The notes beneath the pieces are model-generated. The model was not told the DNA's origin and ran no database searches. It saw nothing but the letters and a program-made list of their open reading frames with translations. From Oscillibacter sp. ER4 (GTDB lineage: Bacteria > Bacillota > Clostridia > Oscillospirales > Oscillospiraceae), in NCBI GenBank assembly GCA_963623615.1, contig CAVFND010000001.1, positions 1-45,132 on the forward strand: 45,132 nt of DNA, read 5' to 3'. The translations under genes and the position numbers were made by a program. Positions 372 through 41,637 of this stretch are shown in pieces. Numbering within the stretch: the first letter of the stretch is position 1; the number at the start of each line of letters is the position of its first letter.

Positions 372-773
372 TCAGAACGGCAGCTCGCCGTCATCCTCGC
401 TGACCTCCGCAAAGCCATCTGTCGTACTCTCTGCGGCGTTTTGCGCCGGGGCGCTGTTACCGGCCCTGCTGTCAGCAAAATAGATGCTGTCGGCCTGCAC
501 TTCGGCGCTGCGGCGCTTGTTGCCGTTCTTGTCCGTCCAGTCGCGCATCTGCAAGCGCCCCTCGACGACGATCATGCGTCCCTTGTCGGCGTAATTGCAG
601 AGCACTTCCGCCGTGCCGCGCCATGCAACGCAGTCGATCCAGTCCGTCCCGGCGTCCTTGCCGTTGCGATCAACGGCAAGGGAAAAACTCACAACGGATA
701 CGCCGCTGTTCGTCTTCTTGAGTTCCAGATCGCGCCCGATGCGCCCCATCAGGCAAATTCGATTCAGGCTCAC
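372..773 (-). CDS. ssb: Single-stranded DNA-binding protein
   Basis: LNRICLMGRIGRDLELKKT OB-fold start and acidic DDGELPF tail. Confidence 0.95.
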   Translation of the reverse strand: MSLNRICLMGRIGRDLELKKTNSGVSVVSFSLAVDRNGKDAGTDWIDCVAWRGTAEVLCNYADKGRMIVVEGRLQMRDWTDKNGNKRRSAEVQADSIYFADSRAGNSAPAQNAAESTTDGFAEVSEDDGELPF

Positions 774-1588
774 TGCTCGTCACCGTCGCTTTCGATGACC
801 TCGCCCGTCGTCTCATCGACGGTGTAGTTCTCCGTCTCAATGACCGTGTCATCGCCCACGGAATACATGTCCTCGCTGATCTTCGTCTTGATGGTCTCAT
901 CCTGCGCCACCGCACGCACAAAGTCGCTCTTGAGCGGCGCGTATTTCAGCACGCGCTTGAGCACGGTCTTCTTCGCCATTTCGGGGAAATTCGTCTGCCA
1001 CGGGCCGTTGTTGAACGCCTTGGAATACTTGCGTGCGTGGGTCCTCACATCCTCCATGCTCATCACGTCGTAGCCAAAGCCGCCATCTTTCGTGCGGAAC
1101 ATCGCGTAGACGAATTTCGGCTCGCCGCGCTCACCGCTCGCGGGCTTGTGGCTCAACTTCGGGTCGAGGCCGAAAGAATACTCGAATTCGTCGTTCTCAT
1201 AGACGATCTGCGCCTGAATGATACTGACCTCGCCGCTGCGGTATGCCAGGTCGATAAGCCCCTTGTACCCGATTTGGAACTGTGTTTCGAGCGTACCATG
1301 ATTGCGATAGGGGATAAGATACGCCTGCCCGAGTGGGGTGTTCGGCTCCAAGCCGAGCTGCGCTGCGGTCATCATCGCACCGAGGAAACTCTGCGGCGTC
1401 GTCTGCGCGAGCTGCTTGTTCGCGCTCAACGCGGAAAGCGTGATGCGGGTAAAGCGTTCCGGCGTGATGACGCTCGGCAGCGCCTTCGCAATTTCGCCCT
1501 CCATCTGCTTGATGTACTGCTGCATCGTGGGATTGCCTTTCTTTACGGCCTGTGCGCCCTGTGCGTTCTGAATAAGTCCTTCCTTCAT
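770..1588 (-). CDS. recT: RecT-family ssDNA annealing recombinase
   Basis: LGLEPNTPLGQAYLIPY, QIGYKGLIDLAYRSG and PWQTNFPEMAKKTVLKR motifs. Confidence 0.92.
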   Translation of the reverse strand: MKEGLIQNAQGAQAVKKGNPTMQQYIKQMEGEIAKALPSVITPERFTRITLSALSANKQLAQTTPQSFLGAMMTAAQLGLEPNTPLGQAYLIPYRNHGTLETQFQIGYKGLIDLAYRSGEVSIIQAQIVYENDEFEYSFGLDPKLSHKPASGERGEPKFVYAMFRTKDGGFGYDVMSMEDVRTHARKYSKAFNNGPWQTNFPEMAKKTVLKRVLKYAPLKSDFVRAVAQDETIKTKISEDMYSVGDDTVIETENYTVDETTGEVIESDGDEQ

Positions 1589-2571: not shown

Positions 2572-2731
2572 CTTTCGTTACCTCGATGTCCTCCGCCCCG
2601 CAGAAGGGGCAGCATAATATCGTTTGCGTCTCCACGCCGCGCTCACCGTCAAGGTTCTCGCGCCTGCGCAGGACGTCAGGCTCGTCAAAGGTCAGCCCGC
2701 ACCATTCACAGCGCCGCTCGTCTTCTCTCAC
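2519..2731 (-). CDS. Small zinc-ribbon hypothetical protein
   Basis: CEWC...CPFC; start overlaps the upstream stop. Confidence 0.6.
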   Translation of the reverse strand: MREDERRCEWCGLTFDEPDVLRRRENLDGERGVETQTILCCPFCGAEDIEVTKDEDSEDIDARDEPRGVA

Positions 2732-3258
2732 AGGTCCGCCTCCAAATACGCCGCCGCGCTCTGCACGCCGAACTGACGCGCGTCCTCGTGGCTGTCCAGG
2801 TAAATGTCGATGTGACGGCCATTCACGCCGCTGCCGCAGTCCTCGGCGGTGTAGGTGTGCTGTGTGCCGTCAGGCCAGATCAGCAGCACGCGCGAGCCAT
2901 ACGGGATGATGTCGGGGTCAACCGCGATCGTGCGCCCTTCGGTCGCTTCCGTGCCGGTGGCGGTGTAGCCGTTCGCCCATTTGCCGCAGCAGCAGCTTCC
3001 GGCGCAGTACGCCGTGAGCGTGTACTCCCCAAGGTAAATGTCGTTGCAGTAGGCGTATTCCTCTGCGGGCTTGTCCCACGCGGGGTCATACGCCTCAATA
3101 ACCGGTTCTTCCGGCTCGCCTCGGTCTTCCGCTCTCGCGCCGGTCAGCAGCAGCGCCGCCGCCAGAAGGACCGTCGCCGCGCCGAGGCACCCAGCCGCGA
3201 TCTGCGCGGATTGGTCGGCCCTGCGCTGCTCGCGCGTCCGTCTGTCGTGCTTTCTCAT
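2728..3258 (-). CDS. Membrane-anchored 3D-domain (MltA-like, peptidoglycan-active) protein
   Basis: Basic N-terminus plus hydrophobic helix; TAY...TATG...TIAVDP..IPYGS...AEDCG...HIDIY 3D motif; start trimmed to MRKHDRR. Confidence 0.8.
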   Translation of the reverse strand: MRKHDRRTREQRRADQSAQIAAGCLGAATVLLAAALLLTGARAEDRGEPEEPVIEAYDPAWDKPAEEYAYCNDIYLGEYTLTAYCAGSCCCGKWANGYTATGTEATEGRTIAVDPDIIPYGSRVLLIWPDGTQHTYTAEDCGSGVNGRHIDIYLDSHEDARQFGVQSAAAYLEADL

Positions 3259-11421: not shown

Positions 11422-14400
11422 TCACGCCGCCTTCTTCCGTGCGATCGCAAGCTGTTCGTCCACCCGCGCGCGGTTCCAGTGGCGGATCTTCTTCGGCACG
11501 TCCAGATATTCATACATCGCCGTGCGTTGCTGCTCGTTGAGCCCCGAGCGGAACAGCATTTCCATGACCTGTAAGCCCTTGCTGTAGTCGATGGAATCAC
11601 CGTTCTTGTCTTTCAGGCTCTCGCACTCGCTCGCCGCCGCCTTGCAGGCCGCGAACACGCCCGGGTCGATGCGGTACTGCTTCTGCGCCTCCTGCGCGTT
11701 CTGGATCCATTTCGTCGTGATCTCATACTGCCCGCCGGAGTTGTCTTTCAGCGCCATCGCCTTAGCATAGCTCTCGACGTAGCCGAGAGCCTTGTCCTTG
11801 CCCTCGTCAGAAAGCCGCGAGAATGCGCCGCTGCCCGTCGCCTTGTCAGCCTGCGCGCGGTAGGTCTCGCTCTTCTGCGTTTCGTACTTGCTGAACGCGC
11901 TCGCGTCAAGGCTTGCCGCGCTGAACTTCTCCTCGTCCTCTCCGCTGTCGTAGGCGTACTTCCCGCGGATGCCCAGCAGGTCGAGCGACTTCTGCGGGAG
12001 CGAATAGTTTTCTTCGCTCTCGGTTTTCTTATTGTAGCGGGTCTTAAGGTTGCTCTGGATGCTCTCGCCGTCAAGGCCCATCTGCTCCATCAGGTCGCGG
12101 CGGATGTGCTCATAGGTCGTATAGTCGCCCTGTTCCAGCGTGTCGTAGAGGATAGAGATAAACCGGCTCTTGTTGCTACTGTTGGCAAGGTTATAGCTGA
12201 ACTTCTCCACCTCATACTGATATGCAAGGCTCCCGCTCGCCTGTGCAACGGTGCGGATCAGCGCCGTCACGTCGCGCTTGAGGTTGGCGACCGGCAGGCC
12301 GAACAGTTTGCTTGCCGCCGCCAGCATCGAGATCGTCGCTTCCTTGCGCGTTTTCGTGCCGCTCCCGTCCATGCTCTTGGCGAACGTCTGCCCTGCCTCG
12401 ATCACGTCCATGAACACCTCCATGTCCGGTCGCGATACGTCATAGCCCTGAATGATCGACAGGATGTCCTTTGCAAACGGGATTTGCCCCACGATGTTCA
12501 TGTTGCTGCCGACGTTGCCGTTCAGCACCACGTTTGCGATCAGCTCCGCCGCGCCGTTCTCGTCCCCCTCCACGCCCGTAAAGGCGGAGAGAAATTTCTC
12601 CCAGTAGTCCTTGTCGCGGTCGTCGTCGCGCAGGGCGTCAATGACGCTCTGTGCCAGCGCATTTACCACGTTCGTGACCACCAGCGCCGTTGCCGCGCGT
12701 CCCACGGCCTTACGCGCCTTGTTCCGCTTTGCGGGGTTCTCCTCGTAGCGGAATGCGTCGTAGCTGCGCAGCAGCACATTAAGGCTCATAATGGGCTCGC
12801 CCATGAAGGCCGTCGCCTGTTGGGAAAGATCGCTGCGGCCTCTCATGATGTTCGATCTCTGCAAAATGCCGTCCACGACCTGCGTCTGGTCGATCATGTC
12901 GGTGAATGCCTCGTTGACCGCGCTGTAAAATTCGTTGCTGCCCGCTCGCACGTCGGGCTTCTCACGCTTCACCTGCCATTCGCAGGCGTTCCACAGCTTC
13001 CCCCACGTCACGGCGTCCGCCTTGCCCGCCGCCGCGCCCGCAAGGTCGTTCAGCTTGCTTGCCGCGCCCTCCTTGCCGTAGAAGCGCTCTTTCAGCGTGT
13101 ACGGCGACGAAATGTCAAAGCTGCCGACGTCCTTGCGCATCGCGATCGGGGAGTGCTTGAGCGCTTTCTCCCATCCGCTCCCCTTCGTCACGCCGCCGGT
13201 CATGCCCTTTGCCATGTCCTTCGGGTCGAGCACCGCAGCCGCGCGGAAGAACGCCGTCGGCTGCTGGATAACGACGCGGATATTCGCGCCCACGGACGCG
13301 CCCTTGAATTTGCCGACGAATTTTGCGGCCTTGCCGGTCGCCGGTTCAAAGTCCTTGCCGCCGATGCCGTTCTGAATGTCGCCCATCAGCTTTGTCCAAT
13401 ACTGTGACGCGCCCTGACCGCCCTTTTCGTCGAGCAGCCCCTTCACCGTCACGCCGGTTTTGATCCCCGCATCGCTGCGGTACTGGAAGTTGAAAAAGCG
13501 GTTCATGTCCTCCATCGGCGCGAGCCATGCCGCGTAGTCGATCATGTCTGAGGCGTGAGCGGCAAACGTGTCGAACACGCTGTGCAGCTCCACGGCATTA
13601 TTGGCTTTCTGCTGCGTCTGCTGCGCCATGCCGATATTTTTGATCGAGCGCACGTTGCCGCTGTCCTTTTCGAGGTTGCTGTGCAGACCCTCCCTTGCCG
13701 ACTTGATGGGCCAGTAGTTCTTGTCGGTGAATTTGCGGTAGCCGTAGGCCTGCATGCTCGCCTCGTTGCCGTACTTGGCAAGCGTTGTCGCGGTAAGCTC
13801 CTGCAAGCCGTCCGCCACGCGCTTCTGCTCGTCCGTCAGCTTGCCCGTGATGCGCTCGATGTCGCCCTCGGTCAAAAAGACCGCCTGCGTCCCGCGCTTC
13901 ACCTTGACAAGCCCCGTGTCCGCGCTGCGGATCTCCGGCTGATACACGCCGCCGCCCAGCAGATGGCCGAGCGCCTGATCTCGCTTGCTCAAAAGGTACA
14001 GCTCCATCACCTGCGGCGTTGTCAGCGTCAGTTTGCCGCCGTTGGCAACGGTGATATCGTGCGTCTCCGCCTCCCACTTGCCGATGGCGCTGCCGCGCAC
14101 ACCGCGCCACGCCTCGCGCAAATTGCCGTGGCGCGCCTTGTTGAAGATTTCCTTCACGCCGTCCGCGCCCAGCTCGTCGCCCAGCACCTTCTGCGCCTTT
14201 TCGGCAACGTCCCGCGCCATGACCTCCTGTGAATCCTGCGCGTTGCGCAGCAGCCGGTAAAGCGCTTTGCCCGTCTCGCCGTAGTGGGCAAAGAACGTGT
14301 ATGGCGTTTCCAGGCTGATCGCCGTATTGCCGCCGAGCTTCTTCCTCCGCGTGCGCACGTCGGTCTTGAAGGCGTCCGCCATCTGCTTTGTGGTCTCGAA

Positions 14401-17400
14401 TTTGCTCTTCGACAGCACCTTGCCCGCCGTCGAGACGGAGTGCTCCACCGCGCGGACCGTCTTCCACATTGTCCCAAGTTCTTCCCGCGTCAGCTCGGAG
14501 AGCCGACGGTCGCCCATCTGGATCACCTGCTCCAAAAGGCCATCCGTTCCGACCAGCGCCTCATCTACGACCATTTCCCTGCCGTTCTCGTCCTTACCCT
14601 CAAGGATCTCGCCGTACTGCTTCTGCAAGGCGCGGAACGCCTCGGTGCGCTGCGTCGGCGTGCCGCTGCCGTCATAAACGCGCTTGCCGCTCTCGTCCAC
14701 GGTGTAGGCGCTCTCCTGATTGATGCTGTTCAGCAGTGCCGCCACGCTCGAGCGCATATCCTCGGGGATGTGGCGCGTGTCCGTCGGGCGCAGCAGCTTT
14801 TTGGAAAGCTCCTTGGAGTGGCGCACGATCTTCGCGCGCAGCTCGCGCTTTGCCTGCCCCTCGCGGCGCGTTGCGTCCTTCTCGCGGTAACGGTCTTTCA
14901 GCGCATCCAGCTTTTCCACCTGCTGCGTGCGCGCCTTCTGCAAGGCCTCCTGCGTATGCCGCAGCCGCACCGCGTCCGCGCGTCCCTGCGCCATCTGACC
15001 TGCGAGCTTTGCGTCCGCCGCGGCCTTGCGCCCTGCCGCCTTTGCCGCGTCCAGTTTTTCCGCCTGCACGTCGGCGAAGGTCTTCTTCGCCTGCGGCAGA
15101 TCGAAAAACCGCTCCATGATGTCGTTCGAAATGGCGCTGACCGCCTGACCCATGTAGCCCTCAAACGGGTTATACTCGCCCACATTGTAGAGCTCGTTCG
15201 CCACCTCGGCGATACGGCTGATCTGGTCGCTCACGTTGTTCTCGCGCGTCTCGCTGAAAAACTCGGGGTAGTTCTCCGCCAGCTCAGAATAGACCTGATC
15301 GACGTTCGTGTGCTCGCCCTTGACAAGATTCACCTTGCCGAAAAGCCCGCGGCGCAGGTCGGCGTAGTCCGTGATGCCCGCCGCGTCCTCAGCAGAAAGC
15401 GTCAGCTTCGTATCCTTGAGGAACTTTCGCAGCTCGCTGTACTCGCGGTAAACCTCGTCATCCTTTGCGATGGAGCTCTCGGCGATGCGCTCGGCAATGG
15501 AATCTGCGCGGCTTCTTGCCTCGGTATAGGTGAGCTCGCCGGTCTCGTCGCCGCCGCGCGCGATGTAGTCGTACAGGCTCGCGAGGTCGCCCGCGATCTC
15601 GCTGCTGTCGATCTCCGCGCTGTAATCCTTCACGAGCTTCTTTGCCGCCTGCTGAACGCCCTTGCTGTCGGTGCGCACGCCGTCGCTGCGGCGCGTCTGC
15701 CCCTTCCAGTAGTCCACGCGCTGGCGCAAGGTCTCGTTCTCACGCTTGAGCGCCGCGAGCTCCTGCGCGTTCTCCGTGCCCTTGAGGGACAGGAACTGTG
15801 CAAGGCTCGACACCTGTGGCGTCGTACCGTCTTCAAAATAGGCCTTGATATCGGCAAGTACCTTGTTCGCGTGCGTGCCGCGCGGATATTCCGTGCTCGA
15901 TACCGTCTGCCCGTCAGGCGTATCAAGGTCAAGGATGACCTCGCCACGATTGTGGCTGATGAAATCGGAAAGAGAATCGAGCTGATTCTTTGTCGGCATG
16001 ACAGAAAGGTTGATGCCGCCGCTTTCCGGAGAAATGCGGATATTGCCCTCGCTCATAAACTGGACCATGCTGCCGCTGTAATCGCTGCCGCCGTAGTCGC
16101 CGCCCAGCGCGTCGCGGATATCTCGATGGTCGACCGTGCGATATCCGCCGGGGCCGCCTTCATGTCTGCCGGAGAAGTCGAGCTTTTTGCCGTTCGTCAG
16201 GATGTAACCGGTCTCCGACCACTTATAGGTATGTCCGAAATACTCGTCCGCATCCTTGCGGTGCTGCTTCTTCTCTTCGTCGGTGTACTCTTTCAGCGAA
16301 TAGCGCTTCTTGGAGTTCTCCTTTGTCAGTCTGCCGCTTTCACTAATAGGCACACCCGCTTTGCGGAGCTCCTTGAGCAAGTCCGGCGTTACCACATTAT
16401 CGGGAACCGAAATGCCGGAATCGCCCAGCAACTCTTTGTACATCTGTGCCACTTCCGAATTAGGAACGATGCGTACAGGCTTAATCCAGCGGGAAAGAAA
16501 TACTTTCCGCTCAATGCCTCTTGCCTTTCGCACCTGCCCCGCGACAGTGCCGGTATGCCATGAATGCCAGCCGGTAGAATCCTTTGCACCCTCTGCGCGG
16601 TATCCGCTTGTGTCTTCGCTCACAGGTACTTCGCATTCTACCGTGACAAGGTTGTCGCGCGTATACGCCCCACTGAACTGATCGTTGATAACAAGATTGG
16701 ATGAATGCATATAGGGGTTATACGCAGCGATAACATTGCCCTGTCCCTTGCCCTTATCCAGCTTGAATTTGCCGTCTTTCACAAGGTCGGGGCGCTCAAC
16801 CGCCATTTCCCACGCGCCAAGCTCGCTTGCATCCTCGTATTTGCCATCGACACGCGCAGCCATCGGCGGGTACAGCTTCCCGTCAACCACCTGCATTGTC
16901 TTGTAGGTCTTGAGCGTCTTTTGCTTTTCAAGGTAATCCAGAGTGTCTTTATCGGTCACGCGAAGAGAGTATCGGGCATCGTCATATTTAATGTCGTCGC
17001 CCTTCCGAGCAGAATGATCGACCCTATTGACATTTTCCTTGCTTTGGGGTACACTACGTTCAGAAAGTCTACCACCATTTAGAGCGCTGCTCTCCCGAGC
17101 AGAAGAGCCATTACCGGTGGTAGGCTTTTTGCGTTTCTGAATGTTCCCGATGCTGTACGCCGTTTCTTCGTTCCCGTTCAGCGCAGAGACAAACGAAACT
17201 CGGTAATACTGACCATCGCTGTCTTCAAAATACGACACATACGAATTGAAGCCATCTTCGCCAATGTCGTTCTCGTGCACGCCGCCGATGTCCTCCATAT
17301 TGTGTGAGAACTCGCCAGTGAGGATAATCTCGTCAATGTGCGATGCCGCCGTTTCTTTCAGGCGATATGCTTCGTCGGAGAGCTGCGTTTTTTGATGCGT

Positions 17401-19815
17401 TTTCAGGTCGGTGGACTTATCGTCCGCCAGTTTGTAGGCTGAGCGCTCCGTCAGGCGCACAAGCCCGCCGTCCGTTGTCGGCAGCACGATATCGTTGCCC
17501 TTACGGATCTCGCTGTTGATGTAGTTTTGCAGCTGTACGCCCCATTGCTTCGGGTCGTCCCCTTCCAGAACCTGACGGTCAGCCTTAACGTAAGAACGCC
17601 CATCATCCAGCGTCTTGATCTCGAATCTCGACTTGCCGCCCTCACCGGCGGCATTCTGGCTGTTTTTCGCCGCCGCCTCAAACGCCTGCTGCAAAAGCCC
17701 CTCCGCCGTCTGCGCCTGCGTCTTGGCCTTGCCCGTCAGCTTGCCCACGATCTCGCGGATGGCGTCGCGCAGTTTTTCAAGCAGCGTGCGGTCTTCGCTG
17801 TGCCTGCGGATAAACTCGTTCAGCACGTCCGTGTTGGCGATCATCTCGCCCGCGTAGTTCGCCGCGGCCTCGTCCAGCGCTTCATCCATGCTGATCTCAA
17901 CGCCCATGCGGTTATACTGCTCGTGCAGAATGTTCGCCGCCTCGGCGACGTCGGTGTCTTCCATGATGGCGTTGCGGAACGCCGTGTACTGCTCAGGCGC
18001 GAGCTCCTGCACTCGGTGCGTCCACTCATGGCCGACGACCTGCATCACGGGGTCCTGCGCGTCCTTCGCAATGCGAATTTCGTTGCCCTCGATAACGCCG
18101 TTGGCCTTGCCGCCGAGCACTTCATCTGCCATGCGCACGCGCACGCCGAGAGCCTTTGCAACGGTGTTGATCTCGTCCGCTGTCGCGTTGTCCATGCTGC
18201 GCGAAACGTAGTCATCATAGACAAGGCCGCTGCCGCCGTCGCTCTCCTGTGCGAAGGTCTTCTTGCGCGCCTCGGTCTTCGCGTCGTTCTGTCCCGCGAC
18301 ATAGCCCGCGTAGGCCGTCTCATTCGTCGGGTTCGGATTCGCTTTGCCCTCTACGCCCGCGTTATAGGCGGGAATAAAGTCCTTCACGTGCTCCGCCGTG
18401 TCCTTGCCCTCCTGATACGAGCCGCGGATCGCCTTGCGCCCGCTCTCGCCGATCATACTGTCATAGCGGGCAAAGAGCCGGTCGGCGATGCCGTTCACGA
18501 TGTCCGCGTCGCTGCGTGTCTCCGTCTGCGTGTTCGGCAGCTCAGTACGACTACCATAATAGCGCCCGCCGCGGTTGCCGATGGCTTCCACGCCGCCGCC
18601 AAGCCCGCCGAGGATACCGCCGACGAGGAAGTCGTTCAGAATTTCCGATGCTTCCAGCTCGCTATAGCTCCCGCCGAGCGTCTTCCCGTTATAGATCATC
18701 TGCAAGGCCGGCTGAATCAGGTCTTCGATAGCCTCCTCGCCGCCCTCTTCGAGGAACGACAGCGCGATCTTGCCCGCCGCGCTGCTGTTAAGCCCCTGCA
18801 TTGTCCGCTCGATGACATCATCTAAGAAGCCTTTGCCGAACATCTTCTTGAACGGAGCCGCCGCGTTGCCGATCTTTTCGGTCGCCACACTGAGCGCGCC
18901 GCTCGCAAAGCCATAATTGACCTGCTGCTCGTGCGTTGCGCCCTGCCTGCGCGCCTCCTGCGCGCCACTGCCCATGCTGCGAATGGCCATAGGGAAAAGT
19001 GCTGTTCCAAACATAAAGGGCGATAATGCAATGTCTTCTGCCATTTGCGTGCCTGCAACACCCGCATCAACGGCAAGCTGCCCGACTTTGCCCAGCCCAC
19101 TTTTCGCCTTATTGATATCCTTTGCGCCACTGTCGGCCAGCCTGTCAGCGGCCTTGTAGATCGCGCCCGCCGTGCGTTCGACCTCGCCACCAACGCCGTA
19201 TGCCTGCTGATACGCCGCCTTGCGCGCTTCCAGATTGGTGATGACGGTGCGCGCCGTGTCGCGCTCGCTCTCGGTGCTGCTCGGGTCGTTCAGCACGTCG
19301 CGCTGCGCCTTGATATCCTGATCCCACAGCGCAATTTCTTTCTCAGCCTCGTCGCGGCGCTGCAAGCCGCTTCCGGTCTGCGCCAAACCGACGGCGTTCG
19401 TGAAACCCGCGCCGTAGGTCTTCGTTGCACCCTTGAGCGTATTCCCGACGCGCTGTGCGACCGTCGGCGTCTTCACGTCCTGCACGTGCTGGTTGAAGGC
19501 GTTCTCACTCTGGTAGTTCTTCGCTTCCTGCTGCTGCAAAGCGCCCTGCGCTAATCCCTGCGCAAGCGTGCTCTGGTTCTTCGGCGTCACGACATTCTGC
19601 TGCTGGCGGAACATCGGGGAAGACGCGCCCGTCTGCTTCGTCGTTCTCGTCTGCTGCGGTGTGCTCGCCTTCGGCGTCGTGCCGAATGGCTTTACCTGCT
19701 GCGTGCTCTCTGCCTTCGGAAACGTCACCTTGACACCGCTCGTTTTCTCCTGCGTAGGGGAAACCGGCGCAGTTTCCTTCTGCGCCGGTTTATTGTTGAA
19801 TGTGACTTTAACCAT
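11422..19815 (-). CDS. Large polyvalent virion/ejection protein (~2800 aa)
   Basis: Follows podoviral tail genes; HEWTH zincin motif; internal modules delimited by RFEI/RYSL/RYSL/FLSL linkers. Confidence 0.8.
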   Translation of the reverse strand: MVKVTFNNKPAQKETAPVSPTQEKTSGVKVTFPKAESTQQVKPFGTTPKASTPQQTRTTKQTGASSPMFRQQQNVVTPKNQSTLAQGLAQGALQQQEAKNYQSENAFNQHVQDVKTPTVAQRVGNTLKGATKTYGAGFTNAVGLAQTGSGLQRRDEAEKEIALWDQDIKAQRDVLNDPSSTESERDTARTVITNLEARKAAYQQAYGVGGEVERTAGAIYKAADRLADSGAKDINKAKSGLGKVGQLAVDAGVAGTQMAEDIALSPFMFGTALFPMAIRSMGSGAQEARRQGATHEQQVNYGFASGALSVATEKIGNAAAPFKKMFGKGFLDDVIERTMQGLNSSAAGKIALSFLEEGGEEAIEDLIQPALQMIYNGKTLGGSYSELEASEILNDFLVGGILGGLGGGVEAIGNRGGRYYGSRTELPNTQTETRSDADIVNGIADRLFARYDSMIGESGRKAIRGSYQEGKDTAEHVKDFIPAYNAGVEGKANPNPTNETAYAGYVAGQNDAKTEARKKTFAQESDGGSGLVYDDYVSRSMDNATADEINTVAKALGVRVRMADEVLGGKANGVIEGNEIRIAKDAQDPVMQVVGHEWTHRVQELAPEQYTAFRNAIMEDTDVAEAANILHEQYNRMGVEISMDEALDEAAANYAGEMIANTDVLNEFIRRHSEDRTLLEKLRDAIREIVGKLTGKAKTQAQTAEGLLQQAFEAAAKNSQNAAGEGGKSRFEIKTLDDGRSYVKADRQVLEGDDPKQWGVQLQNYINSEIRKGNDIVLPTTDGGLVRLTERSAYKLADDKSTDLKTHQKTQLSDEAYRLKETAASHIDEIILTGEFSHNMEDIGGVHENDIGEDGFNSYVSYFEDSDGQYYRVSFVSALNGNEETAYSIGNIQKRKKPTTGNGSSARESSALNGGRLSERSVPQSKENVNRVDHSARKGDDIKYDDARYSLRVTDKDTLDYLEKQKTLKTYKTMQVVDGKLYPPMAARVDGKYEDASELGAWEMAVERPDLVKDGKFKLDKGKGQGNVIAAYNPYMHSSNLVINDQFSGAYTRDNLVTVECEVPVSEDTSGYRAEGAKDSTGWHSWHTGTVAGQVRKARGIERKVFLSRWIKPVRIVPNSEVAQMYKELLGDSGISVPDNVVTPDLLKELRKAGVPISESGRLTKENSKKRYSLKEYTDEEKKQHRKDADEYFGHTYKWSETGYILTNGKKLDFSGRHEGGPGGYRTVDHRDIRDALGGDYGGSDYSGSMVQFMSEGNIRISPESGGINLSVMPTKNQLDSLSDFISHNRGEVILDLDTPDGQTVSSTEYPRGTHANKVLADIKAYFEDGTTPQVSSLAQFLSLKGTENAQELAALKRENETLRQRVDYWKGQTRRSDGVRTDSKGVQQAAKKLVKDYSAEIDSSEIAGDLASLYDYIARGGDETGELTYTEARSRADSIAERIAESSIAKDDEVYREYSELRKFLKDTKLTLSAEDAAGITDYADLRRGLFGKVNLVKGEHTNVDQVYSELAENYPEFFSETRENNVSDQISRIAEVANELYNVGEYNPFEGYMGQAVSAISNDIMERFFDLPQAKKTFADVQAEKLDAAKAAGRKAAADAKLAGQMAQGRADAVRLRHTQEALQKARTQQVEKLDALKDRYREKDATRREGQAKRELRAKIVRHSKELSKKLLRPTDTRHIPEDMRSSVAALLNSINQESAYTVDESGKRVYDGSGTPTQRTEAFRALQKQYGEILEGKDENGREMVVDEALVGTDGLLEQVIQMGDRRLSELTREELGTMWKTVRAVEHSVSTAGKVLSKSKFETTKQMADAFKTDVRTRRKKLGGNTAISLETPYTFFAHYGETGKALYRLLRNAQDSQEVMARDVAEKAQKVLGDELGADGVKEIFNKARHGNLREAWRGVRGSAIGKWEAETHDITVANGGKLTLTTPQVMELYLLSKRDQALGHLLGGGVYQPEIRSADTGLVKVKRGTQAVFLTEGDIERITGKLTDEQKRVADGLQELTATTLAKYGNEASMQAYGYRKFTDKNYWPIKSAREGLHSNLEKDSGNVRSIKNIGMAQQTQQKANNAVELHSVFDTFAAHASDMIDYAAWLAPMEDMNRFFNFQYRSDAGIKTGVTVKGLLDEKGGQGASQYWTKLMGDIQNGIGGKDFEPATGKAAKFVGKFKGASVGANIRVVIQQPTAFFRAAAVLDPKDMAKGMTGGVTKGSGWEKALKHSPIAMRKDVGSFDISSPYTLKERFYGKEGAASKLNDLAGAAAGKADAVTWGKLWNACEWQVKREKPDVRAGSNEFYSAVNEAFTDMIDQTQVVDGILQRSNIMRGRSDLSQQATAFMGEPIMSLNVLLRSYDAFRYEENPAKRNKARKAVGRAATALVVTNVVNALAQSVIDALRDDDRDKDYWEKFLSAFTGVEGDENGAAELIANVVLNGNVGSNMNIVGQIPFAKDILSIIQGYDVSRPDMEVFMDVIEAGQTFAKSMDGSGTKTRKEATISMLAAASKLFGLPVANLKRDVTALIRTVAQASGSLAYQYEVEKFSYNLANSSNKSRFISILYDTLEQGDYTTYEHIRRDLMEQMGLDGESIQSNLKTRYNKKTESEENYSLPQKSLDLLGIRGKYAYDSGEDEEKFSAASLDASAFSKYETQKSETYRAQADKATGSGAFSRLSDEGKDKALGYVESYAKAMALKDNSGGQYEITTKWIQNAQEAQKQYRIDPGVFAACKAAASECESLKDKNGDSIDYSKGLQVMEMLFRSGLNEQQRTAMYEYLDVPKKIRHWNRARVDEQLAIARKKAA

Positions 19816-32485: not shown

Positions 32486-34483
32486 TCACATCCCGGGCAT
32501 CGCCGCGCTGCTGCCCGTGTCCATGTTCGGCTTCGACTTCTCGGCGAGCTGCTGCATGTACGGCGTCTGCGTGCTCTGCGCGTCGGCGTTCCTGCTCTCA
32601 ATGCCGCCGCTGCTGCCGCTCTTGCGCGTCGAGCCGCCGCTCTGCGCGCCGCCCGTCATGCCAAGCCCCATGTCCTGACCCGTCAGCTGCTGGATGACCG
32701 CGAGTGCCTTTTGCAGCTGCTCGCTCTGCTGCTGTACGACGTTATAGAGCGTCGCGCCCTCGTTGACCTGGTTCTTGATCTTGTCGATGCCCTCAAAGTC
32801 CATCATGTCAAGCGCGATCATGCTCTCCTGCGCCCTGTCGGGGGAGAAGAAGCCTAGCGAATAGAGTTCCTTTGCCCGCTCGTTCTGTTCCGCGCGGGAG
32901 AAGGGGTTCTTCTTCTGCGCCTTGATCTTGATGTCAAAGACCGGCCTGCGGAACAGGTCGTTGCCGAGGCTGTCCACGCCCGTCACCTGATCGCCGAGCT
33001 GATTCACGCCGATCTGCGCGTACTCGTAAGGCATTTCGTTCGTGATGCGGAACGTGCGCGCCGCGTCGTAGAACTGCCGCATGCGCTCGACGCACAGCTT
33101 CACGATCTTCGTCTGCGCGCGGTAGCACGCCGCGATCATGTCGCGGCTCGCCTTATTGCCCGCCTCCTGCAATGCGGAGATCGCCGCCGCAGCCGTCGCG
33201 CCGCTGGACGTGCCGCCGTTGGACACGTCGCGGTTGGAGCTCGTCTCCTTCATCTCGTCGATCTTCATCTGCACGATGTTCGCGTAGATGGAATCGAGCG
33301 GGCGCGTCGTCACCTCGCGCAGCTTCGAATCGTCGATGCTGCCGGACACGTGGATGATCGGCTTCTGCCAATCGAGAAATTCTTCTTCATTGATGTTCAG
33401 GCTCTCACTCGCGAAATACCGACGCTTGCTGCCCATCATCGACGTTTCAAGGATGTTGCCCCACAGCTTGTCAATGTAGAGCTGCGGATCCTTTGCAATG
33501 GCCGTATAGCCAAAGCCCGCGGGCGTTCCCTTCTCGGGGAACAGCACGTCGAACACGAACGGATATTCGCCGTCTTCGTAGAAGCCCGCCTCCGCGCACT
33601 CAGGATCGTTCTCACTGGCGTAGATGATGTGCTCTTCGTCGATGAACTTCGCGTAGTGCAGCACCGTGCGCCCGTCAATGGTCTTCTTGCGGTAATACCA
33701 GTCGATCACGGCGACCTTTCTGCTCGTGTCCACCGTGTCATCGTACTCGTATTTCGCCGTCTCGATGCTGCTGCCGCTGAGTTTGTCCGCAAACTGCGGG
33801 TATTCGTCCTCGATGATATCGCGGTCGACGAGCGCCACCGTGAAGACGTTGCGGCTCTTCTGGATGTCCTCGACACCCGGCTCCCAAAAGATATTCAGCG
33901 GGTCAATGCCCTCGATGGCGATGTCGCCAAGCCCGTTGTCCTTCTCCTTGTCCCAGAACACGCCGTAGATCGCCACGCCGTGCTTGAGCTTTTCCCACCA
34001 CTCGAAGCTGTACGTGCTGTCAAACTCGTTGTACTCCATGATGACCGGTAGCACGGACGAGAGCGTCTTTGCGCTCTCCTCGTCGCTCTGTTCGCGCGGC
34101 AGGCACACGGGCTCAGGATAGTTGTCCATCGCGTCGGCGTGCTTATTCATGATCGAGTTGAACAGCCACGCACTCGCGGGCTCAGGCCCCTTGTCGTCGT
34201 TTCTCGAACCACGGCGAATGTCCTCCCAGTGCCGCAGCTTCCACCAGCGTTCCTCACTGATGATGCGGTTTTCAAAGTTGCTTTTGCCCTGCTTGTACTT
34301 TTGCAGCGTTTCCACGGCGTCGCCGATCTCCTTGCTGCCGATGGCCGCGCCGCTGCTCATCGCTGCATCGCTGTCGCGGAATGCACCCACGAGCGGGGCC
34401 TCCGCCTTTGCGCCCAGCATCGCGGCAGCGCCCGTCGCATCGGCCTGCTGCTGCGTCTGCGGGAATTTTCTCATTCCTGCCAT
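32486..34483 (-). CDS. Portal protein (podoviral type)
   Basis: Follows terL; GEYPFV, TAAAAISALQE and long C-terminal helix. Confidence 0.85.
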   Translation of the reverse strand: MAGMRKFPQTQQQADATGAAAMLGAKAEAPLVGAFRDSDAAMSSGAAIGSKEIGDAVETLQKYKQGKSNFENRIISEERWWKLRHWEDIRRGSRNDDKGPEPASAWLFNSIMNKHADAMDNYPEPVCLPREQSDEESAKTLSSVLPVIMEYNEFDSTYSFEWWEKLKHGVAIYGVFWDKEKDNGLGDIAIEGIDPLNIFWEPGVEDIQKSRNVFTVALVDRDIIEDEYPQFADKLSGSSIETAKYEYDDTVDTSRKVAVIDWYYRKKTIDGRTVLHYAKFIDEEHIIYASENDPECAEAGFYEDGEYPFVFDVLFPEKGTPAGFGYTAIAKDPQLYIDKLWGNILETSMMGSKRRYFASESLNINEEEFLDWQKPIIHVSGSIDDSKLREVTTRPLDSIYANIVQMKIDEMKETSSNRDVSNGGTSSGATAAAAISALQEAGNKASRDMIAACYRAQTKIVKLCVERMRQFYDAARTFRITNEMPYEYAQIGVNQLGDQVTGVDSLGNDLFRRPVFDIKIKAQKKNPFSRAEQNERAKELYSLGFFSPDRAQESMIALDMMDFEGIDKIKNQVNEGATLYNVVQQQSEQLQKALAVIQQLTGQDMGLGMTGGAQSGGSTRKSGSSGGIESRNADAQSTQTPYMQQLAEKSKPNMDTGSSAAMPGM

Positions 34484-34497
34484 GTCTTCCCCTCCTG

Positions 34498-35948
34498 TCA
34501 GTTGTGTTGGAACCACGCATATCTGTCGTAGCTCGGCGTATTGATGTCCAGCGGGTCATAAATGACCAGCTTCGGCGGCTTGTTCTCTCGCGCCGCAATA
34601 GGATTCTCCATGCACACATAGCGCGTCATGTCGTAGATATGATCCTCCTGCTCGGTGTTCACGTCCTCGACGTCCTTTTCGTCGTAGACGAGGTTCGGCA
34701 CCGTGCGGATGAAATTCTTGCACGTGTTGAAGATATACAGCATCGGCACACCGTTTTCGTCGAATGCAAACCGGTTGTGCAGCTGCATCTTGCCGTCGAT
34801 GCGGGCATTGTCACCCTTCTCGAAGTAGACGCGCTCTCGTTCAAAGAGCGATCCGATGCTCTCCGTGCCCTGCGTGCCCCAGATGGCGGGGTCGCCCACG
34901 CGAAAGATGTGCCGCCCCTTGAGATTCGGGTCTTCGGCCTCGATGCGCTTCATCTCGCGCGCCACCGCCGTCGGCTCCATCTTCACGCCCTCGTTCGGCG
35001 TGCCCGTGCAGCCGTAATACTCGCGGATGTGGTAGAGCCTGCGGTCATGGTCGACCGCAAACCAGCCGATGGCAAACGGCCTTGAATAGCCCCAGTCCAT
35101 CGCGCACCAGATCGGCCACTCCTTCGGCACCTGAAACGGCGCAATGACGTGCGTATTGATGCGGTCTCGGTAGTGCTCGCTGTCGTTGCGCCACTCGGTA
35201 AACACCTGACCCGAGAACGTGTCCCAGTCGCCGTAGAGCAGCGCGTTCTTCTCCGCCTCCGGCATCGACGCGAGGCGCGTCAAGTAGCTTTCGTCGTTCT
35301 TGAGCAGGATCTTGTTGTCGAACACCGTGCTCGGGACAAAGATACGGCTCTTCTTCCTGTGTTCCTCGTGCCCGTCCGGAAAGCGCACGACCGCGTCCTC
35401 GCGAATGGTCCGCATCGGTGGCGCTGCCGTGATGAACCGTTCCTTGACCCATCCGTGCCCCACGCCGCCGGGATTCGCCGTGCTGCGGATGTACACCCGT
35501 GTCCCAGGCCCGTTCGGTCGGTTGCGGGAAAAGAGGTAGCTGTATTCCTCCCACGTGAAGTGTGTCAGCTCGTCGAATGCGATAAAGTCATAAGCTTGAC
35601 CCTGATACTTGATCTTGTCCTTTGCGTACTGCATCGAGCCGAAGATGATCTTTGCCCCGCTCGGGAATGTCCACGTGTGGCTGCTGCCGTTGTAGCGCGC
35701 GCCCGGATAGATGCGCGGGTAATAGTTCAGCGTCTTGTCAATGAGCTCGGCAAGCTGCGGGAAGGTTTTTCGCAGAATGATCGCCTTGTAGTACGGAACA
35801 TCCACCTGCCGTAGCGCCTCGATGACCAGCGCATCAGATTTCCCCCCGCCTAACCGGCTGCGCCGCCGTATAGAGCCTCGTCCTCCCAGCGGCTCATAAA
35901 GAGCGCCTGCTTAGGCTGCGGCTTCCATACCACGCTACGCTTCGCCAT
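34498..35948 (-). CDS. terL: Terminase large subunit, interrupted at codon 33 within Walker A (35948-35850 then 35850-34498)
   Basis: QPKQ...YGGAAG | GGGKSD Walker A, FDELTHF Walker B, STANPGG, DWGY and EDHIYD nuclease motifs. Confidence 0.9.
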
Positions 35949-36405
35949 TCGCATCACCTCCCGCATCCTGCGGAACAGGCATTACGGCGGGCAGCTCTGC
36001 CACACCGCACACGCTCTCTCCGCCGTCGTCCTTCTTCTCGTCATTTACCCAGCGGAAGTTGTATTTCAGGCTGAATTCCGCGCCGCGCTGACCGTCTCGG
36101 TCGAATAGCCGTTCTTCCGCGTAAGCCTCGATTCTCGCCTTCGCGCGCAAAACCGTGTGAAGAAACTCTCCCTTGCCCTGATAATCCAAAAGCGCCCTGC
36201 GCGAGGTGAATCCCAACGCCAGCGCAAGCCCCGTCACCGTCGGCGGGTGCTCGTTGATGATAAACGGCTTGCCCCACTTGTCGCAGATCGGGAGCCCGTC
36301 GTCGCCGATAATAGGATCTCCCTTGCAGTCCTCAAAATACTGGTCAATGACGGCCTGCATCTGTTCCACCGTCGCATATTTGGGAGGTCTCCCTGTTTTC
36401 GCCAT
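35935..36405 (-). CDS. terS: Terminase small subunit
   Basis: GRPPKY, PPTVTGLALALGF.SR..LLDY and FSLKYNF motifs; upstream of terL. Confidence 0.85.
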   Translation of the reverse strand: MAKTGRPPKYATVEQMQAVIDQYFEDCKGDPIIGDDGLPICDKWGKPFIINEHPPTVTGLALALGFTSRRALLDYQGKGEFLHTVLRAKARIEAYAEERLFDRDGQRGAEFSLKYNFRWVNDEKKDDGGESVCGVAELPAVMPVPQDAGGDANGEA

Positions 36406-36505
36406 GCCGCCACCGCCTTTCTTTTTTATGCTGCACCCCCCCAGCCCTCGGCCATATCACGCAGCATTCTTATCCCCGCTCGGGGAACCGAGCTTCCTAT
36501 TTCCG

Positions 36506-36696: not shown

Positions 36697-36738
36697 CCGC
36701 CGTCGCATATTTGGGAGGTCTCCCTGTTTTCACCATGC
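36691..36738 (-). pseudogene. Duplicated 5' fragment of terS (~15 codons)
   Basis: 48-bp copy of 36360-36407 with 2 mismatches (MVKTGRPPKYATAEQ). Confidence 0.8.
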
Positions 36739-37464
36739 TCATCGCCTTTGTATAGAATCCGCATTCTTAATTCGTTTGCTTGCAATCTGAAAGTATTTTT
36801 CATTTAATTCAATCCCGATAAATCTTCGATCCAAATTAACGCACGCAACCCCCACTGATCCGCTACCCATGCAATTATCCAACACGGTTTCTCCCTTTGC
36901 AGTATAGGTTCGAATCAGATATTCCAAAAGTGGCACCGGTTTTTGTGTAGGATGCAGCAATTCGCTGTTAGGCACGCCAGGAAACGAAAGAATGTCTGTC
37001 GGGTAGTACAAATTATTTCTTGCACTTACTTTTACCTGTCTGCCGTAACATTCGCTTTTAGCCGTCCCACCATCCTTGTTTCGATATGGCCCAACTCTCA
37101 TTTCCGGATTGTATGTGCATTGTTTTTCGTAAAACACGCATATGTTTTCTGTTTTTTTTAGAGGCTGCTTTTTTGCGTTCAGAAAGTTCCTGCAATAATG
37201 CTTGTCCCAAATCCACATATAGTGAAAATCGCTCAAATTGCTACATACTAATTCAGCAGTAAAGGGCATCGCTCCAAACAAAACGATTGCCGCGTTCTTT
37301 TTGGTAATCCGTTTATATTGCATCCACAAGGGGGCAAATGGTATTACGGTATCCCATTTATTCTGTGTAATGCCATACGGCAGATCACACAATATCATAT
37401 CGACGCTGCTATCGGGGATTCCACGCATCAATTCTAAACAATCACCGCACTTTAAATCGATCAT
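36739..37464 (-). CDS. DNA N6-adenine/N4-cytosine methyltransferase (beta class)
   Basis: GDCLE, DLPY, HPTQKP and VLDNCMGSGS motifs; visibly AT-richer than the rest of the genome. Confidence 0.9.
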   Translation of the reverse strand: MIDLKCGDCLELMRGIPDSSVDMILCDLPYGITQNKWDTVIPFAPLWMQYKRITKKNAAIVLFGAMPFTAELVCSNLSDFHYMWIWDKHYCRNFLNAKKQPLKKTENICVFYEKQCTYNPEMRVGPYRNKDGGTAKSECYGRQVKVSARNNLYYPTDILSFPGVPNSELLHPTQKPVPLLEYLIRTYTAKGETVLDNCMGSGSVGVACVNLDRRFIGIELNEKYFQIASKRIKNADSIQRR

Positions 37465-40145: not shown

Positions 40146-41637
40146 TCATTCCTCCCCAAATCTCAATTTCGTCACGGCGATGGGAAACTCTTCGATCTCG
40201 CTCGCCCAGCGCGCCGTGCCTTTGCCGTTGCATCGCTCGAACACCAGCGGAAAGCCGCCGATGCCGTCAAACAGGCTGCCCATCGTAACGGGGCGCAGAT
40301 ACTGCGCGCTGATGCGCTTTGCAAGGAACGACCAGAACGGCAGCGCGATTGAGTTGCCGCAGGCCTTATAGCGCGGGCTGTCCGCGCTGTCGCGCAGCTT
40401 GCCCTTACTGTCGCGCCACTCGCCGATGTCCGTCCATCCGTCCGGATAGCCTTGCAGCCGCTCGCATTCCAGCGGTGTGAGACGACGCACAACCATGTGT
40501 GTGCGAACAACGTTGTTTAGATTCAGGCTTTGCCCGTCGCTCTCTTTAGCTTGCAAGGTCCCGTTGATCTCGCCTCCCTCTGTGAAGTTGCGGCAATCAA
40601 CGCTGCTGATCACTAAATCGGTGCTGTCCTTGTAGTCGCGCTGCTTGCAGCTGCTCGCGACGTCGCCCTCGCGATAATCGCCGAAGCCCTGCATCTGATA
40701 GCATACCACCGGAACCTCGCCGAAAGTATGCAGCGCAGGGCACGGCTTGTCCGGTCCGACGGTGCTGCGGTTGTCCGGTGATGTGATCTGCGCGCGGTCA
40801 AACACCAAGACCGCAGGACATTGATTCAGTCCGCTTAGCACCGCGCCCAGCGTCGGTGCTAATTCCTCGGCGTAGCCGATGCCGTTTGCCTTTGCGCCCT
40901 GCCCCACCTTAAAGGCTGCGCAGATGACCGGCTGGTTGTTTCCGCTCATGCCCGCCGCAGCGGGCAGTGTAGGGGCGTTGTCGTCCGTGCGGATCTCCGC
41001 GCCGCCCTGCTGCGTCGCCATGCAAATCAAGTCATCGCCTGCGCTATCAGCACCCGCTCTAAAATCTCCGGCAGTTTCTTCCCCCGCCGCTCCGCGCGGC
41101 GTAGGATGCCCTGACACGCTTTTCCGCTCAAACGATATTTCTCCTGCGGTGTCTCCTCCAAAATCTGCGACAATCGAGATTCGACGGCGGCGTTGGGGCA
41201 CTCCCCAACGTTGCGCATCGTGCACTCGCCAAGCCACGCTCCATCGTCCGCCCATGCAATCGTGGTAGCCCCCCCCAGGTAGGCCATCCCTTTTCAGGCA
41301 CTTCAATATTGGGGGCTTCCGGCTCGACGATGCGGATGATCTCTTCGAGGACTGCCGCGAAGTCTCGCCCTCCGTTTGAGCTAAAAACTCCGGGGACGTT
41401 TTCCCAGACCATATACCGAGGTCTGACCATGTCACCTGACCGTCCACATGCTCGGTCATGCTCTCTCATCTCCTTTACGATGCGAATCTGCTCCATAAAC
41501 AGCCCGCTGCGCGCGCCCGCAAGACCGGCGCGCTTGCCCGCGACGCTCAAGTCTTGACACGGCGAGCCGCCCGTGATGACGTCCACCGGCTCGATCTCCG
41601 CGCCGTTGATCTTCGTGATATCGCCGAGGTGCTTCAT
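40146..41637 (-). CDS. Circularly permuted C5 cytosine methyltransferase (alpha chain), frameshifted at the G8 tract 41269-41276
   Basis: GGSPCQD, WENV, GVPQRRRR, RRLTPLECERLQG, GNS; motif I SLFDGIGG at the C-terminus; deleting one G yields a 497-codon ORF. Confidence 0.85.
41027..41459 (-). CDS. Overlapping alternative-frame beta polypeptide of the methyltransferase, broken by the same G8 tract
   Basis: MTEHVDGQ...RDGLPGG joins ATTIAW...LSQILEETPQEKYRLSGKACQGILRRA when one G is removed. Confidence 0.6.

Follow-up and report, generated by a model that had tools for sequence, protein, structure and literature searches.

A stop-containing gap in the Walker A motif of a gut phage large terminase gene: a likely translational bypass of probable homing-endonuclease origin

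We describe a 5-nucleotide (nt) coding gap that splits the gene for the large terminase subunit (terL) of a phage in an Oscillibacter sp. ER4 assembly (GCA_963623615.1, contig CAVFND010000001.1). The analysed stretch, called the window below, is this one whole contig of 45,132 nt, with a 55-nt terminal repeat, and its terL is the only one in the whole assembly. The phage is temperate, and its relatives occur mainly in gut Clostridia, foremost Oscillospiraceae. Comparisons with related loci make it likely that functional TerL is produced by a short translational bypass, or stop-hop, across the gap. In three gapped lineages the gap lies just downstream of a gene for an I-HmuI-like HNH endonuclease, an association that is new for such gaps and points to a homing origin.

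The interrupted terL gene

On the minus strand, terL opens with an ATG at 35948 and continues for 32 codons up to ...YGGAAG, i.e. to the middle of the Walker A motif. The last of these codons, GGT (35855-35853), is followed directly by TAG (35852-35850), the final base of which is shared with a GGC (35850-35848); beyond this the gene resumes in another frame as GGG GGG AAA TCT (35847-35836), then GAT, and stays open to 34498. Relative to the family motif TAGGC represents 5 extra nt, deletion of which yields the YGGAAGGGKSD of uninterrupted homologues. The earlier note on this DNA, made from the sequence alone, had described a split of terL in Walker A by GGT-TA-GGC, and this proved exact, YGGAA-GGT-TAG being followed by GGGKSD in the other frame. 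That the gap lies in Walker A is concluded from the motif and from family profiles, because the single-sequence fold was discarded (pLDDT 35) and a search of solved-structure sequences with an intact homologue returned no match. The elements of the gene are:

35953..35961, minus strand: terL Shine-Dalgarno (SD) sequence GGAGGTGAT, very strong (-17.2 kcal/mol against an assumed anti-SD motif)
35853..35948, minus strand: terL part 1, an open reading frame (ORF) of 32 codons that covers the N-terminus and the initial half of Walker A (YGGAAG), with a ratio of nonsynonymous to synonymous substitution (dN/dS) of 0.042 across the 24 codons ahead of take-off
35853..35855, minus strand: candidate take-off codon GGT (Gly), present as GGT in 82/82 close sequences
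35848..35852, minus strand: 5-nt coding gap TAGGC, its A-site TAG overlapping the candidate landing codon GGC (35850-35848), conserved as TAGGC/TAGGT
34498..35847, minus strand: terL part 2, 449 codons from the resume codon GGG through GKSD to the nuclease domain (Pfam Terminase_6N, PHROG 979/2)

Conservation and selection

The GGT-TAG-GY gap is present in 80/80 of the closest viral relatives, namely the best 80 of 366, which have 92-98% amino acid (aa) identity. Among 82 close sequences the gap reads TAGGC in 80 and TAGGT in 2. Across these same sequences dN/dS comes to 0.042 for the 24 codons that precede the take-off codon (21 haplotypes) and to 0.044 for the opening 410 codons of part 2 (57 haplotypes), and synonymous variation is seen in 19 of the 24 upstream codons as well as in the Gly codons right downstream, with the gap itself fixed. 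The alignment that the earlier note had proposed as a check thus displays a gap kept amid synonymously varying flanks, and the contrary outcome it had named, a private insertion surrounded by uninterrupted relatives, is not what the best 80 of 366 relatives present. Because all of these are gapped and both halves of the gene are under purifying selection, the gap is, on this comparative evidence, genuine and under selection, and neither an assembly error nor the mark of a dead gene. The splitting of an essential motif by a stop codon might be taken to mean that terL is dead or an artefact and that the phage depends on a helper. We regard this as very improbable given a dN/dS of about 0.04 on both sides, the fixation of the gap, an assembly without a second terL, and the intact look of the genes for head, tail, lysis and integrase, which the earlier note had also noticed for the rest of the genome.

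In the wider family the gap is a minority state, since just 4 of 80 genome loci have it (gaps of 5 nt in L081, L102 and L105 and of 8 nt in L103; the others are 75 ungapped loci and 1 that is cut off; loci recovered in our searches are labelled by L and a number), as do 3 stretches in a sample of 117 that was selected by an upstream motif excluding the window's clade (1 is cut off and the remainder are ungapped). A pattern search of 401 genomes of the host's family gave 16 matches, the sole terL among them being the window's own, and the best 60 of 1576 annotated phage records are all less than 63% identical. Two wastewater contigs from one study (X10 and X11) span the site with no deletion listed, a further point against an assembly error, though one that is uninformative on splicing.

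Gap variants in other terL lineages

Scans of viral contigs for inserts of 6-33 nt, using a pattern without a requirement for a stop codon, recovered 15 stretches, of which 8 are interrupted terL genes, every one with a stop in the gap, and the other 7 are not interrupted terL. The eight comprise a 6-nt in-frame gap GGT-TAG-GGC (L278 and L290), an 8-nt gap GGC-TAA-AT-GGC (L283), an 8-nt gap GGG-TGA-CT-GGA (L282, L286, L287 and L291) and an 18-nt in-frame gap with the stop in its second codon (L292). A further 6-nt gap, in L309, is the one true terL among at least 120 stretches from metagenome pattern scans, nearly all the others being chance matches. For 5-nt gaps, the viral contigs yielded 0 matches with a take-off codon besides GGT, and no landing codon besides GGC or GGT, nor any purine-ending one, in that motif (2 matches).

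Gly codons ending in a pyrimidine and those ending in a purine form the classes read by one tRNA-Gly. The take-off and landing codons fall in the same third-base class in 13/13 lineages, including one GGG/GGA pair, and the stop adjoins the take-off codon in 12 of the 13, standing one codon later in L292. Uninterrupted homologues have GGT at the position of the take-off codon in just 5/75 cases and a pyrimidine-ending codon in 48/75.

Some of these loci have further peculiarities. In L292 (2016-2045), an ACCCC in the 18-nt gap can pair with a downstream exon-like GGGGT, recalling an intron guide sequence. The gapped terL of L081 has an intein-like insertion (C...HN/C) in its nuclease domain, with an apparent frameshift inside (2610-3020). 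L421, a close relative with the 5-nt gap, carries a second insertion of ~830 nt with an ORF after the terL ANPG motif (670-1500, minus strand), the ends of which are intron-like, yet without a match in Rfam.

Decoding of the gap

We consider it likely from these comparisons that functional TerL is made by a stop-hop over the 5-nt gap. The ribosome would pause with peptidyl-tRNA-Gly wobble-paired on GGU and the A site occupied by UAG; in a minority of cases the tRNA would detach and re-pair on the GGC 5 nt downstream, decoding would restart at GGG GGG AAA to give YGGAAGGGKS (junction peptide WEDEALYGGAAGGGK), and the remaining ribosomes would release a 32-residue peptide. As regards the features expected of bypassing, removal of the gap restores the conserved protein, one tRNA reads the codons of take-off and landing, and a stop occupies the A site; a take-off stem-loop or other RNA stimulator was not found in fold analysis of the window and the gapped rows. 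Because no conserved RNA structure was found, a basal, low-efficiency stop-hop as in synthetic constructs would be expected. In such constructs +5 hops are also seen.

The stop-hop is favoured over a -1 shift or readthrough because the gaps of 5, 6, 8 and 18 nt, in two frame classes, always lie between Gly codons of one tRNA class; the two frame classes and three stop codons in one loop fit a single mechanism, the re-pairing of peptidyl-tRNA-Gly past a slow A site. The competing proposal, in which TerL would gain two P-loop residues either through a -1 frameshift no later than the stop or through readthrough of the UAG and a subsequent slip in the G run, can appeal to the 5- and 8-nt gaps both being of the -1 class, to a -1 frame open through TTA at the window's junction, to the G run after the stop in the window, and to the hints of UAG readthrough in L096 and L309 described below. 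We judge it improbable: the -1 codon is CGG or AGG, which tRNA-Gly is unable to read, the G run is not conserved, the 6- and 18-nt gaps are in frame and need no shift, the two added residues would lie in a loop of constant length in the intact genes seen, and a stop-free in-frame insert in the motif occurs in none of the 15 scan stretches, the 75 ungapped genome loci or the 117-stretch sample. Thus, of the two decoding routes in the earlier note, the hop from GGT to GGC appears to be the best-supported mechanism, its support being comparative, and the -1 shift that it gave as the alternative is disfavoured, with tRNA-Gly lacking a re-pairing partner in CGG/AGG and the 6- and 18-nt gaps in frame. 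A general recoding of TAG was rejected on the basis of long standard-code ORFs and genes ending in TAG in the window, where no tRNA was found with Rfam.

Several observations weigh against a stop-hop. The search patterns demanded GGN at the landing position, a duplication origin would likewise produce matched codons, and the lineages are not fully independent. Another nearby Gly codon is also invariant, so that invariance in the clade alone proves little. In L292 the stop is preceded by a sense codon, TTT. The single in-frame TAG of L096, which stands three codons ahead of the Walker A Tyr, is not a matched hop, and L309 (minus strand, about 1430) has a second in-frame TAG that replaces the aromatic codon of LRKT(F/Y)PQL, the rest being open; these two suggest from their sequence that plain UAG readthrough, or decay, also occurs in this family. 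At the junction there is no conserved stem-loop or unusually stable fold (z +0.3 in the window and -1.6 to +1.8 in 15 gapped rows); one 5' fold reaches z -2.6 and is not common to the other rows. Without a known stimulator the hop could be weak, and any stimulation by the nascent peptide would be masked by the constraint that TerL function already puts on those residues.

Association with a homing endonuclease

Directly before terL in three gapped lineages (L278, the L417 group and L418) lies a gene for a 175-aa protein with NUMOD4 and HNH_3 domains that is I-HmuI-like. The HNH-bearing gapped loci number nine, some being the same contig fetched twice. An HNH gene with a very strong SD also precedes the terL of L096 (867-1500), which has an intact Walker A and the lone in-frame TAG; in the remaining 145 ungapped loci, all of which have 600 nt or more of upstream sequence, none is found there (0 of 145). 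In L419 only the final codons of the HNH gene remain. A search with the HNH protein alone returned 80 loci, 6 of them with terL: four of the L417 type, one with group I introns in terL, and L543, which has a different terL (47% to the nearest seed), a GGC-TAG-GC one codon later, an SD of -18.3 and an adjoining HNH gene.

The sequence flanking the gap has the signature of homing. L417, with gap and HNH gene, and the ungapped L429 are 96-97% identical downstream of the gap and only 76% identical in the 72 nt before it; over those same 72 nt the gapped L416 and L419 match L417 at 100% and 94%, despite 75-93% downstream. This drop in identity set against the match before the gap delineates a conversion tract ending at the gap, and co-conversion is thus seen when L416, L417 and L419 are compared with L429, L423 and L481. 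In this lineage a block that runs from the start codon as far as the gap has moved from phage to phage. In a quick tree of 63 chosen rows (13 gapped against 50), not all loci, gapped terL genes are scattered among ungapped ones, requiring 8 changes, 5 of which are forced by well-supported branches; a single gapped clade is rejected (p-AU 1.8e-61).

From these sequence patterns the gap probably has a homing origin. It would have come as part of a homing cassette, made up of a free-standing NUMOD4-HNH gene between terS (the small terminase gene) and terL together with its own copy of the terL start, and would protect the DNA of the conserved Walker A motif from the nuclease. In the window's clade the nuclease gene would have been lost and the gap and strong ribosome-binding site retained, a history that we infer from shared anatomy since the window is without such an HNH gene. 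The case is weakened in that no HNH gene lies near terL in the window or its close clade, no close ungapped sister was found for that clade, and an HNH match is seen in 9 gapped loci, compared with 100 such loci that have 600 nt or more of upstream sequence. When 399 scored genomes of the class were searched for the HNH gene, 13 loci came up, and in none of them did the 1.5-kb flanks hold a terL. Given the group I intron that occupies the same site in L413 (see below), the gap could be what is left of an intron that shrank, or it could have been acquired independently as a shield at a homing hot spot.

The first of these two possibilities bears on a further explanation, removal of the 5 nt at the RNA level, the gap being a relic of a trans-spliced group I intron or the target of a micro-intron activity of a kind not yet known. 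An Rfam group I intron (RF00028) indeed sits at exactly the gap position in L187 and L413, which are the same contig (L413:889-1500), its first bases being TAG, immediately behind GGT, and its last a G that precedes GGT GGT AAA; L584 has a group I match starting inside the Walker A codons; the GGT take-off codon supplies the U required at a group I 5' splice site; and in the available text on phage ICP1 its terL is spliced and has an adjacent endonuclease (PMC10055350). In the window no register of the 5 nt has U|...G| ends, L283 and L543 (GGC) and L282 (GGG) are without the U, five bases are unable to fold into a ribozyme and Rfam finds no intron in the window, so that we hold splicing of this gap to be improbable. 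The GT..AG ends that appear in one 5-nt register were set aside as a coincidence that fails for the 6- and 8-nt gaps. The L413 intron contains an apparent decayed endonuclease remnant, and the distant terL of L584 has two group I intron matches with an HNH gene between them (1859-2577).

The start signal of terL and regulation

The terL SD is the strongest predicted on the window's minus strand (-17.2 kcal/mol; the next gene has -14.8, both with an assumed anti-SD motif), which bears out the strong ribosome-binding site of the earlier note. It resembles the 3' end of the HNH gene of relatives, and a similar motif is present at the ends of the HNH genes in L417, L278, L418, L096 and L543. All 14 gapped Clostridia-type rows have an SD of -14.3 or lower, the ungapped median being -11.45 (74 rows), and in the tree set an SD of -14 kcal/mol or lower is found in 14/14 interrupted versus 7/48 intact rows; the type of start codon did not separate gapped from intact terL. 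It is plausible that the strong SD compensates for a leaky hop. Against this stand the small number of independent pairs in the SD association (at most 5; sign test p 0.0625), the strong SDs of some intact lineages and the lack of one in three of the four distant gapped genes; moreover, the SD travels with the cassette and may not be compensation at all.

The hop might be real and yet be kept mainly as a regulator, holding TerL low relative to TerS or tying packaging to the supply of release factor 1. The persistence of the gap in a large clade without a nearby nuclease gene, the failure to see its exact deletion in any of 80 close relatives (0/80), and the use of UAG, the rarest stop in the assembly (143/1340 long ORFs), in all Clostridia-type cases agree with such a role. 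This is countered by close sister phages that package with an ungapped terL and weaker SDs, and by the patchy, mobile distribution, which fits a selfish element; further, given the strong SD, loss of the gap might overproduce TerL, which would retain the gap without a regulatory origin. We therefore take regulation as its main purpose to be rather unlikely. The strongest ribosome-binding site on the minus strand being that of terL, and the tie of the gap to a homing cassette in relatives, suggest a selfish insert that is tolerated, not a throttle by design, with a regulatory side-effect possible; on the same two grounds the purpose that the earlier note ascribed to the gap, limiting TerL relative to TerS, was not upheld.

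The surrounding phage genome

The terL gene is flanked by terS and portal:

35935..36405, minus strand: terS, small terminase (Pfam GP3_package, PHROG 606), its final codons overlapping the terL start
32486..34483, minus strand: portal, intact, directly downstream of terL (Pfam P22_portal, PHROG 156)

Capsid, tail fibre, endolysin, integrase, repressor-like and recombination genes appear intact by Pfam and PHROG. The terS start (MAKTGRPPKYAT) is seemingly duplicated ~340 nt upstream as a short remnant (36700-36790 versus 36340-36410, minus strand). The virion module includes a 2797-aa protein of PHROG 22978 with unassigned function (11422-19815, minus strand), and the scanned window genes include neither a recognisable tape measure nor a recognisable tail tube, suggesting a short-tailed phage. 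A cytosine methyltransferase-like sequence extends across two overlapping ORFs (41637-41128 and 41459-40146, within 40146-41637, minus strand), and a second methyltransferase lies at 36739-37464.

Relationship to known bypassing and homing systems

T4 gene 60 and the byps of yeast mitochondria are established natural examples of translational bypassing, of which very few are known. The terL gap belongs neither to the T4 gene 60/MobA cassette, whose way of working it parallels, nor to the terminase bypass of Streptomyces phage phiHau3, which it resembles. In the available part of the mobA/gene 60 study, self-cleavage is prevented by the insert, which persists after the nuclease gene has gone (bioRxiv 10.1101/2022.08.31.505936). 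As far as that text goes, the two systems share an essential gene whose gap falls at an invariant Gly codon, a stop beside the take-off codon, a matched Gly landing codon, and, in the HNH-bearing lineages here, a free-standing endonuclease that carries its own copy of the flanking host-gene sequence and can be lost with the gap staying behind. On the same footing they differ in the target (terL, not topoisomerase), the length of the gap (5-8 nt, not 20-50), the take-off stem-loop (none found here), the lack of room for a mini-SD, and the gene not being split into two tailed proteins; unlike MobA, the nuclease here is NUMOD4-HNH/I-HmuI-like and the setting is a temperate phage of gut Clostridia-type hosts. 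Membership of the MobA/gene 60 element was rejected for want of a Topo2L insertion with MobA and CTE/NTE tails, the target being terL and the nuclease NUMOD4-HNH.

For phiHau3 and two prophages, the accessible text reports a candidate bypass in the large terminase, backed in E. coli by mass-spectrometric data on a UAA variant (PMC10732093). There too, so far as that text describes it, a short non-coding insert (10 or 7 nt) follows a Gly codon just before the TerL Walker A lysine. In contrast, no endonuclease link is seen in that text, and its 3/100 genes compare with a large gut clade and about 12 further lineages here. The UUA-dependent bypass of phiHau3 was rejected as a class for the window's gap, whose A-site codon is UAG, with TTA out of frame only. 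In synthetic E. coli constructs, as given in the portions available, stop-hops are low-level and need no stimulators (PMC5009743; bioRxiv 10.1101/2024.12.09.627546); the corresponding portion of the former, a 2016 review, knows of no natural in-frame stop hopping (PMC5009743). The likeness lies in matched codons around a stop, with 9 nt specifying one residue in the 6-nt variants L278, L290 and L309, and the difference in those having been constructs. The collaborative homing of ICP1, in the parts of that report at hand, likewise involves an interrupted terL whose N-terminal piece is short and has a free-standing endonuclease beside it; there the endonuclease is of the T5orf172 type and the interruption is spliced from the RNA, whereas here it is too short for a ribozyme (PMC10055350). 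L413 presents an intron version at the same terL site as the gap, and group I intron membership of the window's own gap was rejected in the absence of an Rfam match and a U|..G| register. A literature search, with subscription journals largely outside its scope, found no description of the gut-phage terL gap; in the available part of Benler et al., frameshifts are discussed only in reverse transcriptase (bioRxiv 2020.10.07.330464).

Implications

Taken more broadly, there is in our estimate an even chance that one family of free-standing HNH homing endonucleases has spread through the terL genes of gut and environmental phages by means of a minimal shield, namely a stop and 2-5 bases between matched Gly codons, which would need no intron, intein or RNA structure and would rely on basal stop-hopping and a very strong start signal, possibly as the end point of shrinking group I introns. 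The locus offers a minimal, structure-free case of likely bypassing. The gene affected is essential to a common gut phage, and natural variants differ in the length of the gap, the stop codon and the tRNA class. It poses the testable questions of whether basal stop-hopping is enough for an essential gene, and whether coding gaps are shields against homing endonucleases or shrunken introns. Annotation will label genes of this kind as truncated or as pseudogenes, and their phages will be taken wrongly for defective ones. If the stop-hop is true, these terL genes would hold natural, selected +5, +6 and +8 stop-hops, and phage packaging may be sensitive to release factor 1.
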